This document shows, piece after piece, positions 25,976-29,748 of a stretch of 29,748 nt of DNA (positions are counted from its first letter, which is position 1; the number at the start of each line of letters is the position of its first letter). This DNA is from a virus. Lineage: Duplodnaviria; Caudoviricetes. Under the pieces are notes generated by a model. That model saw only the letters and a list, made by a program, of their open reading frames with translations. It was not told the DNA's origin and made no database searches. The translations under genes were made by a program, and so were the position numbers. Where the stretch lies: positions 1-29,748 of IMG/VR virus record IMGVR_UViG_3300004241_000039; one strand, given 5' to 3'.

Positions 25976-26050
25976 AATAATTGTTTTAAATTGTTTGTTT
26001 TTAACTGTTTATAAACGCAAATATAGTAAAATTTATTTATTATTTACGCT

Positions 26051-26269
26051 TTATTTTACTTTTTTTAAGTGAGGTCTTAATTTTTTGTAGTTCCAAAATA
26101 TACCGTCAATTCTATACCCATAGCTTCCATTGTTTTCTGTTTGCTTTATGAATCGTCCTGTTTTTTGGTTGTAACATTTGCCGTCTAAAACAAAGGCGTA
26201 GTGTGGCGCAAAATCAAGAACATATTTGATCTTTAAGCTAACTGTTATATAATTTTATTTGTAGAACAT
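26051..26269 (-). pseudogene. Small NUMOD4-like ORF with an early in-frame stop
   Basis: ATG TTC TAC AAA TAA, then 67 open codons (..FAPHYAFVLDGKCYNQKTGRFIKQTENNGSYGYRIDG..). Confidence 0.4.
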
Positions 26270-26285
26270 TGCAAATCTATTTGAT

Positions 26286-27113
26286 TTAAAAAGCAATCAT
26301 TTTAATTGGACTTTCAGTATCGAGTATATCAGAATCAATTATTTTAATATATCCAGCAGTAGTATTAATATTTTTGTGCCCTGCTATTTTTTGAACTCTT
26401 CTTAAATCAACACCATTTTTAATTAATTGAGTCAAACATGAATGTCTAAGGCTATGACTCGATATATTTTTATTTATTCCAGCCTCTTTGGCTTTGCTTT
26501 TAACTATGTTTTGAACGCTAGTAACAGAATATTTACCTCCCTTGCTGCCTTCAAATAAATACTCTTTGGTGTTATACAAGTCCCAGTATTTTCTTAAAAG
26601 ATCAAGCACAGATGAATCTAACATTACAACCCTGTCTATTTTGCCTTTTCCAGACCTTATGTTTATTTTATTGTTTTTTGTATCTATGTCTTTTAATTTT
26701 AGGTTTACAACCTCCGAAACCCTTATAGCACATGAATACATTAAGGCAATTATAGATTTATGTTTAATGTTTTGGGTGTGATTTAGTATGTTTAAAATTT
26801 CATCTGTTGATAAAATATCTGGTTGCTTTTGTTCCATTTTTGGCCTTGGTAAAATACTGTGGTCAAACTGTTTTCCATGTATTTCTTTAAAAAATGCCTT
26901 AAATGAATTTATAATAGCCATTTGTGTTGAACTACTTATTTTCCTTTTTTTGTCTTTTACGATATAACTACGCAAGTCATATTCTGTAATGTCCAAAATT
27001 GGTTTTTCAATCCTTTCAGAAATAAGTTTTATATTTCCGATATAAGACAAAATTGTTTTTTCGCTTAAATTTCTAAGCAATAATTTTTCTTCAAACTCTA
27101 TAATTTCGTTCAT
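26286..27113 (-). CDS. Tyrosine recombinase (integron-integrase-related, SAM-like N-domain), 275 aa
   Basis: Catalytic set present: IRVSE (R), GKGKIDR (K), HSLRH, AGH, TTAGY (Y). Confidence 0.95.
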   Translation of the reverse strand: MNEIIEFEEKLLLRNLSEKTILSYIGNIKLISERIEKPILDITEYDLRSYIVKDKKRKISSSTQMAIINSFKAFFKEIHGKQFDHSILPRPKMEQKQPDILSTDEILNILNHTQNIKHKSIIALMYSCAIRVSEVVNLKLKDIDTKNNKINIRSGKGKIDRVVMLDSSVLDLLRKYWDLYNTKEYLFEGSKGGKYSVTSVQNIVKSKAKEAGINKNISSHSLRHSCLTQLIKNGVDLRRVQKIAGHKNINTTAGYIKIIDSDILDTESPIKMIAF

Positions 27114-27136
27114 GTTAGATATTTAATAATTCAACA

Positions 27137-27167
27137 CAAATATACTATTATTTTTTTATATACACAA
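27137..27167 (-). promoter_or_regulatory. Promoter of the recombinase gene
   Basis: TTG (27167-27165), 20 nt spacer, TATATTTG (27144-27137). Confidence 0.7.
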
Positions 27168-27194
27168 TTATAGGCTATCTATACGTTAGCAACA
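27165..27194 (+). other. attI-like primary recombination site (crossover inferred at G|TT, 27185/27186)
   Basis: CGTTAGCAACA lies 72 nt from the recombinase start with no hairpin left arm. GTTAGCAACA is the exact reverse complement of TGTTGCTAAC at 27682-27691. Confidence 0.7.
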
Positions 27195-27197
27195 AAA

Positions 27198-27371
27198 TTA
27201 AGGCGCATCTTTCGGCACTATCTTAATTTCGAGATTGAGAGGCAAAAGCCATAAATTGAGCTTATTGACTAATCCGTTAAATGTGCGCTTGAAATTCTTT
27301 GGATTTTTACCTAAAGAATTTGAAAAAGCAGTCCAACTACCGAACTGCTTTTTAATTTCTTCGTCTAACAT
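27198..27371 (-). CDS. Cassette 1 ORF B (57 aa, possible small DNA-binding protein)
   Basis: Manually translated MLDEEIKKQFGSWTAFSNSLGKNPKNFKR...; TAATG-coupled to ORF A. Confidence 0.6.
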   Translation of the reverse strand: MLDEEIKKQFGSWTAFSNSLGKNPKNFKRTFNGLVNKLNLWLLPLNLEIKIVPKDAP

Positions 27372-27550
27372 TAGTTTTCCGTTCTAACGTCAAAATATTC
27401 AACTCCTTTTTCTGTAATTTTTGTATAATAACTGTGCTTTTCGCCATTTAATTTTTGTGCCTTTTCTCTTGCATCTTCTTTGGTGGAATAACGAGAATTA
27501 AAACTGTACATTTTGCCTTCAATTGCTTTTGTGATTTGTGTTGTTTTCAT
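27371..27550 (-). CDS. Cassette 1 ORF A (59 aa hypothetical)
   Basis: Manually translated MKTTQITKAIEGKMYSFNSRYSTKEDAREKAQKL...; A-rich leader. Confidence 0.6.
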   Translation of the reverse strand: MKTTQITKAIEGKMYSFNSRYSTKEDAREKAQKLNGEKHSYYTKITEKGVEYFDVRTEN

Positions 27551-27684
27551 TTTCTTTTAGATTAAGTATCTGATGTGTTTCAAATACTTCGTAAAGTTCG
27601 TAAATAGTTACGATATATGCAAGCGTTTATGTTGTAGAACACGTAATTAATTACGTTTTATTTTTTAATAAACTGAAATTCTGT

Positions 27685-27778
27685 TGCTAACAACAAATAA
27701 CAGTCAATGGCTGCGGCGGTGTAATTTTGAAACGGTAGCGCGAAAACACGCCACTGCTGTTATTTGCAGCCGTTATGG
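27685..27778 (+). repeat. attC-like site 1
   Basis: TGCTAAC-aa-CAAATAACAG-t-CAATGGC ... GCCACTG-CTGTTATTTG-cagcc-GTTATGG. Confidence 0.85.
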
Positions 27779-27784
27779 CGCAGT

Positions 27785-28012
27785 TTAACCCAGCTCTTCG
27801 ATTTCATATTCCAATTCACAGCAATCACCTTCTTTTATATTATCACGAAGCCATTCGGCAGCTTCTGGATAATCTTCACAATTAGTTCCATCTATCTCAC
27901 ATCCAGAATTATAAATTTCTGACAGTTGTTCAAATACTTTTTTAGATACTTCTAATCCACCAATACCAACCTTGTAAGTTACTTTTACTGTTAAATCTTC
28001 AATTGTTTTCAT
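27785..28012 (-). CDS. Cassette 2 hypothetical acidic protein (75 aa)
   Basis: ATG ORF occupying a single cassette. Confidence 0.75.
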   Translation of the reverse strand: MKTIEDLTVKVTYKVGIGGLEVSKKVFEQLSEIYNSGCEIDGTNCEDYPEAAEWLRDNIKEGDCCELEYEIEELG

Positions 28013-28055
28013 AAATATTTGTTTTAAAATTAGTTACTTAAATAAAAAACCGCGA

Positions 28056-28148
28056 CCATAACACAAACTATACATCAATTGCTGCACCTGTGCGGACAAC
28101 TTGCTTTTTTGCGGACACACGCAACTGTGTATAGTTTCAACGTTATAA
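28056..28148 (+). repeat. attC-like site 2
   Basis: CCATAAC-ac-AAACTATACA-t-CAATTGC ... GCAACTG-TGTATAGTTT-caac-GTTATAA. Confidence 0.85.
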
Positions 28149-28154
28149 ACGCAT

Positions 28155-28694
28155 TTAAAAAAGCTTCGTTGACAGGTTGTATCGGTTGAGAAATTCAATC
28201 TTAGACCTTTCGGGTAGCCAAAATTCAGCGTTTGAACTTTTAATAATGTTTTCAAATTCCCATTGAAGCATTTCGAAATCAGAATCCTTTGAATCTTTTG
28301 ATTCCTTCGGAACTCCAAATTTTTCAAAGATTAAATCTCTGGTTTTGTGCATCGCCTCAATTATCTCAGGGCATTTTTCTTGTATGATATTTTTTAAAGG
28401 TTTTATCATGTCGCCCCAATAAGCTTCTTCGGCATCGTGCATTAAAAAGGTCAATTTTCTGCCAACTGGCGCAATGTCATACATCATGCAGCAATGCTGT
28501 GCAACGCTCCAAAACTTTTGCGTATGTCCATTCCAACGGCAATTATTTGATAGTCCGTGAGCAATATCTTCAATCAAAATAGTTGCCGGATCAATATTGA
28601 AAAGGTTAACTAAAATGTTGCTTACCGTGATCATGTGACCATCATAAACGATCTTCTTGTTATCGAGGTCTAAGGCTGTTGTGATCTTTTCCAT
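28155..28694 (-). CDS. Cassette 3 HD-domain phosphohydrolase (YfbR-like nucleotidase family)
   Basis: DIAHGLS..CRWNGH...SVAQH...LMHDAEEAYWGD motifs. Confidence 0.85.
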   Translation of the reverse strand: MEKITTALDLDNKKIVYDGHMITVSNILVNLFNIDPATILIEDIAHGLSNNCRWNGHTQKFWSVAQHCCMMYDIAPVGRKLTFLMHDAEEAYWGDMIKPLKNIIQEKCPEIIEAMHKTRDLIFEKFGVPKESKDSKDSDFEMLQWEFENIIKSSNAEFWLPERSKIEFLNRYNLSTKLF

Positions 28695-28703
28695 AAAAAC
28701 GCG

Positions 28704-28833
28704 TTATAACCCCAGCTATATGTCAAGTCGGGTAGTGTTTGTAATTCGAGCGACCTAACCCGCTCGTTGGTTCGTGCAGCTTGACAAATTTTACCACGCA
28801 TCCCGCCCTGCACATAGCTGGATACCGTTAACG
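28704..28833 (+). repeat. attC-like site 3
   Basis: TTATAAC-cc-CAGCTATATG-t-CAAGTCGGG ... CCCGCCCTG-CACATAGCTG-gatacc-GTTAACG. Confidence 0.85.
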
Positions 28834-28834
28834 C

Positions 28835-29413
28835 CTACTGTAAAAGCGACACGAATCGACCTGCAATATTGCAAGTTTTCAGCGTTTCGACATTTTGAGA
28901 TCCATAAGCGACAAGAACAGAAGGTGCGCCAGCATTCATACTCGCTTTTTGTCCAGAAACATGATAAAACGTTAATCTGCCTTCAATAAAGAGTAAGGCA
29001 TCTGCCTTATTCCATACATGTTCAAAAAACATTCTCGTTTCAGTTCGTGCAAAAATTAAAGCTACACCGTTCCCATGTTCAGAAAGTTTTTTCAGCCATT
29101 TTGCAGCCTCTAATCCATAAGGCGGGTTGCACCAAACGCGACCAAACCAATCTTGTTTTAATCCATCTTTTTTAATGTCAAAATGGTTTAATGCAGTTTC
29201 CCAAGGTGCTTTAATTGGTGCGCAAGGATCTAAATCAAATACACCTAAAGCACCAATTATTTCAGGAGGAGTTAACCACTCGTCTTTGCCCATATTTGCG
29301 GATTCATGAGATCCCATTCCATTACGACGAGAAACAGCAGCGTTAACACCAACTATATGCAAGTTGGGTTTCTGTGCTTCGTTCGATTGTAATATCTGTA
29401 ATTGTTCATTCAT
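28835..29413 (-). CDS. Cassette 4 phage-type DNA N6-adenine methyltransferase
   Basis: DEWLTP, FDLDPCA, VWCNPPYG and ARTET motifs. Confidence 0.9.
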   Translation of the reverse strand: MNEQLQILQSNEAQKPNLHIVGVNAAVSRRNGMGSHESANMGKDEWLTPPEIIGALGVFDLDPCAPIKAPWETALNHFDIKKDGLKQDWFGRVWCNPPYGLEAAKWLKKLSEHGNGVALIFARTETRMFFEHVWNKADALLFIEGRLTFYHVSGQKASMNAGAPSVLVAYGSQNVETLKTCNIAGRFVSLLQ

Positions 29414-29470
29414 AATTTAATATTGTTTAGTGGGTTGCTCCCAACCTGACATATAGTTGAACCGTTATGC
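29341..29470 (+). repeat. attC-like site 4
   Basis: CGTTAAC-ac-CAACTATATG-CAAGTTGGG ... CCCAACCTG-a-CATATAGTTG-aacc-GTTATGC. Confidence 0.85.
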
Positions 29471-29476
29471 ACAACC

Positions 29477-29748
29477 TTAAAAAAGACCGTCCAACACATT
29501 TGAGATTGTTTCTAAATCTGATTTATGTTTTGGATTTCGACTTGAATAAGATTTTTTTGCTTCAATTGCGTAATTTACATTTTGAATACAAATAGTAAAT
29601 TCTGTTTCATTCCTTGTAAATTTATGTTTTGAGCATTGCAATTCTTCATCAGATACTTTAAAGCAACAGGTTTTTACTCCTGCTATTTTTGCCCCTGTTC
29701 TTTGTATTTCAATGCCATTTGTATTAGTAACCGTATCTGAGGTTATTT
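29477..29748 (-). CDS. Cassette 5 hypothetical protein, 5' end outside the window
   Basis: Frame open from the window edge (..ITSDTVTNTNGIEIQRTGAKIAGVKTCC...NVLDGLF*) to a TAA at 29479-29477. Confidence 0.65.
   Translation of the reverse strand, partial: ITSDTVTNTNGIEIQRTGAKIAGVKTCCFKVSDEELQCSKHKFTRNETEFTICIQNVNYAIEAKKSYSSRNPKHKSDLETISNVLDGLF

Follow-up and report, generated by a model that had tools for sequence, protein, structure and literature searches.

A phage-borne array of attC-like cassettes beside a short tyrosine recombinase without the IntI-specific insertion

Can a tyrosine recombinase without the insertion that marks integron integrases head an array of exchangeable cassettes, and does such an array belong to the phage in which it is found? 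The question is raised by the IMG/VR virus record IMGVR_UViG_3300004241_000039, hereafter the window (the whole record, 29,748 nt). The window is a linear phage contig, with terminase, portal, capsid, tail and lysozyme genes all on the minus strand. In positions 26,286 to 29,748 a first-pass annotation read a tyrosine recombinase gene, an attI-like site and a series of attC-like cassettes as an integron-like system. The analysis described here supports that reading. The locus is integron-like in its working and lies outside the canonical IntI family, and the array is resident in the phage and likely functions as an integron with the adjacent recombinase as its driver. The I2 helix of IntI is held to be the innovation permitting recombination of single-stranded hairpins and is the marker for finding integrons. 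With a natural family that lacks I2 and heads actively exchanged hairpin cassettes, this claim can be tested directly; such a family also provides the evolutionary intermediate that the field describes as missing (PMC7790495).

The window was scanned on both strands for TAAC, 2 nt, a 10-bp arm and the complement of the arm 4–6 nt before GTTA. Four sites were found, all in the above region and on the plus strand (Table 1), with no further match on either strand; the chance level in 100 first-order Markov simulations was a mean of 0.2 and a maximum of 2 matches on one strand. They are the four intergenic hairpins recognised in the first-pass annotation, in which the sizes of 94, 93, 130 and 130 bp included 3 nt more per side. 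The common architecture proposed for them holds for TAAC, arms and GTTA in all four, but the unpaired base before CAA is missing from site 4, whose extra base is situated on the opposite arm; the CAA and CTG next to the loop are present in the window sites but are not general among relatives. Contig L038, 100% identical over 3452 bp, continues the array past the window with four more complete sites and one broken site, which brings the total to at least eight. The cargo comprises a 75-aa protein of unknown function, an HD-type nucleotidase, a Dam-family methyltransferase, whose open reading frame (ORF) starts within the loop of site 4, and several unknowns; the two ORFs of cassette 1 had no Pfam or PHROG match. 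Homologues of the 75-aa gene and the Dam gene are present also in other phages without sites. The GC content of the cassettes (0.33–0.39) does not separate them from the backbone (0.37), and no duplicate of the docking site was found elsewhere in the window.

Table 1. Predicted features of the recombinase and cassette array in the window.
Feature	Position	Strand	Description
Tyrosine recombinase	26286..27113	-	275 aa; Phage_int_SAM_4 + Phage_integrase; R131 K156 H220 R223 H246 Y255; without IntI-specific insertion
Predicted recombinase promoter, Bacteroidota type	27137..27167	-	TTG 27165-27167, 20 nt, TAnnTTTG 27137-27144; adjoins docking site
attI-like docking site	27170..27195	+	Inverted L-like box 27170-27179, 5-nt spacer, crossover G27185|TT, R box
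Cassette 1 (587 bp)	27186..27772	+	Minus-strand ORFs: 59 aa (27371-27550), 57 aa (27198-27371)
attC-like site 1	27688..27775	+	88 bp; arms paired 10/10; spacer 5 nt
Cassette 2 (370 bp)	27773..28142	+	75-aa gene, function unknown, 27785-28012 (-)
attC-like site 2	28059..28145	+	87 bp; arms paired 10/10; spacer 4 nt
Cassette 3 (685 bp)	28143..28827	+	HD-type deoxyribonucleoside 5'-monophosphatase, 28155-28694 (-); phrog_318, 3e-41
attC-like site 3	28707..28830	+	124 bp; arms paired 9/10; spacer 6 nt
Cassette 4 (637 bp)	28828..29464	+	Dam-family N6-adenine methyltransferase, 28835-29413 (-)
attC-like site 4	29344..29467	+	124 bp; arms paired 10/10; spacer 4 nt
Cassette 5 start (624 bp; 161-aa gene, function unknown)	29465..29748	+	Cut by contig end; complete in L038

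A fixed gene order with no change at the G|TT boundaries is contradicted by the relatives, in which units are gained, lost and exchanged at these points. The loci L053 and L055, as well as L011 and L051, are identical over 400 nt up to the GTT of the docking site and unrelated beyond it; two other identical pairs share the same first cassette. In the 37–38% sister clade, L016 equals L015 with 1341 bp inserted at GTT, and the insert closes with a hairpin that has 23 nt in common with attC1 of Polaribacter phage P12002L and a flank complementary to the insert's first bases. Divergence at the docking-site GTT is seen in three near-identical pairs, two in the window's subclade and one in this sister clade; the conservation of GTT itself in the docking-site comparison was set aside, being present by construction. 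The backbone is common to L004 and L050 on both sides of different arrays, and homology resumes at the last G. Cassette 2 recurs in phage L086, with homology from G27772 to the end of the cassette at site 2 and another cassette after it, and L090 contains a homologue of the Dam gene of cassette 4 as a cassette. In contigs of two independent runs (X4 and X5), compared at 88% likeness, single cassettes, including parts of cassette 1, are found beside other neighbours. Of 12 loose ends listed for these contigs, 5 have a G|TT no more than 10 nt away, 4 are close to the TAAC end of a site and 3 lie elsewhere, the figures coming from the 24 of 185 loose ends listed.

Single-base mapping of the exchanges makes it scarcely credible that the phage genes form a mosaic swapped by ordinary homologous recombination, with the hairpins as their terminators or RNA elements. 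Phage genomes are indeed mosaic, and some ORFs begin within the loops, but the sites are alike in structure and not in sequence, and both the recurrence of cassette 2 in L086 and the divergence of near-identical relatives at G|TT contradict this explanation. No Rfam match was found over 26000–29748 at E ≤ 1, and scans for sigma-70 promoters (18 versus 17.1) and terminators (4 versus 2.6) remained at shuffle level.

Two details of these loci concern the inserted units themselves. The insert of L016 (2700–4040) contains a TnpB/Cas12f-like gene without TnpA and forms a complete cassette at the phage docking site. In L086 (5225–5260), cassette 2 stands at G|TT without a preceding hairpin, like a secondary (attG-type) insertion.

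The connection of the array with the adjacent recombinase was borne out in position and orientation across relatives. The survey comprised 25 loci with recombinases of at least 36% identity, including the window's own overlap L038 (8 sites); duplicates (L009, L010, L014, L037, L043 and L006) and loci with a partial match or almost no upstream DNA (L003, L012, L017, L042, L045, L049, L052, L054, L057, L059 and L060) were excluded. At least one site was present in 15 of the 25 loci, and all 47 sites were located upstream of the recombinase in a single orientation, with none in the opposite orientation (79 kb) and none downstream (84 kb). In a comparison set of 26 loci with distant recombinases, 4 sites were found in 233.5 kb; the 13 canonical IntI loci scanned (44 kb) gave no sites and, being short, provide no measure of specificity. 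Of 45 intervals, 41 have their longest ORF antisense to the attC top strand, 1 has it in the sense direction and 3 have no ORF, and 14 genes start within a site. The geometry of the docking site beside the recombinase promoter is constant over 46–100% identity, and an inverted L-like box precedes the first G|TT in relatives. A −7-like promoter motif occurs 35–60 nt before the G in 13 of 18 loci (in 12 of them at 47–48 nt; chance per 26-nt span about 0.025), so that much of the conserved upstream block is probably the enzyme promoter and not a set of additional binding sites. This motif and the predicted promoter in the window follow the promoter consensus of Bacteroidota.

This arrangement also bears on whether the phage's own enzyme moves the cassettes. 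Real cassettes might be moved by a recombinase of the host or of a co-infecting element (a Bacteroidota sister enzyme or a canonical IntI), the phage gene serving mainly for lysogenic integration or dimer resolution and the site being a favoured landing place. Integrase-less phage arrays do exist (P12002L; PMC9892861), cassette 2 is placed at a non-hairpin site in L086, and sister enzymes are present on Bacteroidota plasmids. We nevertheless consider this explanation unlikely, given that 47 of 47 sites lie on one side of the gene in one orientation, that the docking-site geometry is fixed beside the gene's promoter, and that phage genes flank the module on both sides in the window. In addition, the P12002L site of this geometry was the only one of six not recombined by IntI1 (PMC9892861).

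The left flank of each site had been said to pair with the bases after the previous boundary, that is, with the start of its own cassette, and not with its own boundary. In the window the pairing is perfect for site 1, while sites 2 and 3 fit with a one-base slip only, because their ungapped scores for the previous versus own boundary (of 7) are 3 versus 4 and 3 versus 1; sites 1 and 4 score 6 versus 0 and 4 versus 0. Over the surveyed sites the rule stands firmer. The match, which is no criterion of the scanner, is better to the previous boundary in 35 of 44 sites, worse in 5 and tied in 4, with mean scores of 4.55 versus 2.30 of 7 (permutation maximum 2.86). Flank mismatches form G-T on the bottom strand in 47 cases versus 7, the bottom strand folds better than the top one in 43 of the 44 sites, and in 38 the modelled circle junction gives a better fold than the linear form. 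Pairing of the left flank with the cassette start in a folded circle is the only sensible account of this tracking. Covariation of the arms (8.9 versus 4.1 of 10 after partner shuffling) was set aside as evidence because the sites were picked by arm pairing.

The same data make very improbable a classical double-stranded exchange at a core formed by right arm, spacer and R box, with the hairpin as a by-product of inverted binding boxes. Such an exchange would suit a recombinase without I2 whose nearest structures by E-value are archaeal Xer enzymes and whose binding boxes are apparently about 10 bp, as in Xer. It does not suit partner spacers unequal in length (4, 5 or 6 nt) and sequence, the bottom-strand G-T bias, or a distant left flank that tracks the cassette's own first bases. 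Variable spacers, the flank rule and the strand bias argue instead for single-strand exchange on the folded bottom strand with replicative resolution. The recombinase would bind the docking site as a double strand and each attC-like site as a folded bottom strand and exchange one strand at G|TT, and replication would resolve the product. Cassettes would be excised as circles, and new ones inserted at G27185, the adjacent recombinase presumably catalysing these swaps. Since the cargo is antisense to the classical layout and co-oriented with the recombinase and the phage genes, its transcription would depend on phage or internal promoters and not on a Pc promoter at the docking site. The phage would probably benefit by being able to replace accessory genes quickly, for instance the methyltransferase and the nucleotidase.

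Some irregularities are seen further along the array. A broken cassette (L038:470–547) consists of the head of cassette 3, whose first 38 nt (37 identical) stand there behind another G|TT, fused to the right hairpin arm of a site. The first bases of cassette 7 (L038:1007–1016) fit the flank of site 8 and not that of site 7; an independent copy, in X4, begins with the bases predicted by its own flank and fits site 7. The broken cassette and the cassette 7 mismatch suggest secondary rearrangements.

The recombinase was assigned to Phage_int_SAM_4 and Phage_integrase by a profile search, and its catalytic R, K, H, R, H and Y are invariant in 66 of 66 aligned homologues. It is not a canonical IntI, because the insertion of about 42 aa that holds the I2 region is absent: the alignment to Vibrio IntI (2A3V) falls into two pieces with the IntI insertion between them. 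The spacing between the KG and HxLRH motifs is 65 aa in this enzyme, 63–65 aa in 16 close homologues and 59–65 aa in 8 of 10 farther ones, against 106–107 aa in canonical IntI (10 of 13 IntI, with both motifs readable). The predicted structure (pLDDT 91) has no extra helix between helices H167–180 and H197–210. It matches both Xer and IntI folds, with the best TM-score (0.73) to 2A3V, the nearest solved structures by E-value being the archaeal Xer enzymes 4A8E and 5HXY. The score against the integron-integrase model TIGR02249 is below the cut-off (151.4 < 265 bits), the match being split in two stretches, and the best family score, to NF040815 (XerA), is below its cut-off as well (203 < 220 bits). 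A tree of 51 rows places the array-linked short recombinases and IntI together (99/99) and apart from 12 other recombinases, the inside of the group being unresolved; locus L104 (unpublished genome G041) was left out of every tree, count and alignment. The tight family numbers about 115 proteins at ≥55% identity, and the long loci bearing the recombinase family are viral records or phage-like contigs. Among the 185,579 species genomes of GTDB, no member of the subclade was found at the sensitivity of a pattern scan, which gave 41 pattern matches and one relative at 28%.

The locus shares much with canonical integrons (class 1, Vibrio IntIA, 2A3V): an intact tyrosine recombinase divergent from the array top strand, an attI-like docking site beside its start with insertion at G|TT, attC hairpins with TAAC/GTTR (R''/R') cores, bottom-strand preference and flank pairing with the own cassette. 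It differs in the missing I2, in the antisense genes and in the position of the platform within a phage gene module. The boxes are of about 10 bp, and, as judged by eye against the aadA7 oligo of PMC9892861, the right spacer is longer and the extra base further from the core. Tools based on IntI would class the array as a cluster of attC sites lacking integron-integrases (CALIN), because no IntI lies nearby, yet an intact recombinase and docking site adjoin it.

The remark in the first-pass annotation that integrons are classically not part of phage gene modules needs qualifying: phage-borne integrons and attC clusters have been published (PMC9892861), so that location in a phage alone is not new. 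The complete phage integrons described by Qi et al. (2023) have a canonical IntI that was taken up from host chromosomes or class 1 elements, and the arrays of virulent phages were integrase-less (PMC9892861). They resemble the present locus in that the attC arrays lie in phage genomes and frequently carry DNA methyltransferase genes, and attC1 of P12002L has the same geometry as the window sites; five more sites of this geometry are present in the P12002L genome, in the whole of which no homologue of the recombinase was found. No I2-less driver or docking site of it is described in the accessible part of PMC9892861. The short recombinases of NF040815 (archaeal XerA, IS91-linked, Bacteroidota plasmid 'xerA') resemble the window enzyme in length, domains and nearest structures, but the window enzyme scores below their cut-off, and the target of XerA is dif. 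No array accompanies the IS91-linked Clostridium homologue that was checked; a Bacteroidota plasmid homologue does have cassettes. Smyshlyaev et al. (2021) distinguished an 'integron-like' subgroup; the parts of PMC8138268 at hand call the insertion essential for integron function and describe no arrays or sites, with 0 occurrences of attC. In IntegronFinder 2.0 (PMC9024848) the extra domain is what defines IntI, and one complete integron is named for Bacteroidetes proper. No description of an I2-less integron was found in the literature searched, subscription journals and bioRxiv supplements being outside its coverage.

Several observations weigh against the recombinase being the driver of the array. 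Both the capture of cassettes and the block on the second strand exchange are reported to require I2 (PMC7790495), and no substitute for I2 was identified in this recombinase. Equally short 38% homologues adjoin IS91 transposases without arrays, and the tree holds one Xer-like outgroup, so Xer sampling is thin. Ten of the 25 loci have no upstream site; seven of these have less than 620 bp there, but L046, L015 and L016 have 1.6–4.1 kb. The 77% fragment (L003/L012) and L057 have no docking site. Arrays or single cassettes occur without a nearby recombinase in L086 and L090 (within 5 kb) and P12002L (whole genome), and an enzyme acting in trans must therefore exist. The bottom-strand G-T bias is weak within the arms (20 versus 13). 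Among the contigs, which were the only material, no joint matched a G-to-G circle junction, and no circle or activity was seen.

With these points taken into account, we lean slightly towards a broader proposal, namely that the window enzyme represents a second integron lineage, in which short I2-less recombinases would recombine folded single strands by other means. It would be native to Bacteroidota phages, as a shuffled bank of accessory and partly counter-defence genes, and to plasmids, where it would carry erm(F) and dihydrofolate reductase genes. Tools based on IntI would miss the lineage, which may be the state that gave rise to IntI; if it is ancestral, I2 would be a refinement of hairpin recombination and not its origin. 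Phages would then own a gene-capture device, integron surveys would miss much of Bacteroidota, and a related platform would move resistance genes on Bacteroidota plasmids. The system is testable, because the cultured Polaribacter phage Leef_1 carries a version of it.

Individual relatives differ in what accompanies the recombinase gene. In Leef_1 (L098:4237–8846) a 34% homologue has four such sites upstream in the same orientation, three of them at or above the main score threshold. On the Flagellimonas plasmid NZ_CP092416.1 (L096:6855–8990) a 38.7% homologue follows a docking-like G|TT and two cassettes of the same geometry, which carry erm(F) and a dihydrofolate reductase gene and both obey the own-flank rule. 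Upstream of a 70% homologue (L002:5600–7950), decayed hairpin remnants lie in ORF ends, and one site passes the scan. In L046 (167–2818), NAMPT and PRPP-synthetase-like genes, the pair of phage NAD-rebuilding counter-defence, stand directly after the docking site, with no closing hairpin within 3 kb of it. On a Clostridium plasmid (L117:174–2211) an IS91 transposase accompanies a 38% homologue, which lacks an array, and N-terminally shortened 40% homologues ('tnpF') are found on the Acinetobacter and low-GC plasmids H61–H65 and on many Acinetobacter plasmids.

The host of the window phage is probably a member of Bacteroidota, since the terminase matches mostly phages of Flavobacteriia and other Bacteroidota. 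Nearly the whole window sequence is present in three freshwater metagenomes, one of which may be its source. An apparent tRNA-like stretch, visible only through translation, is located on the minus strand at 1182–1250 between the holin-like gene and the left genes.

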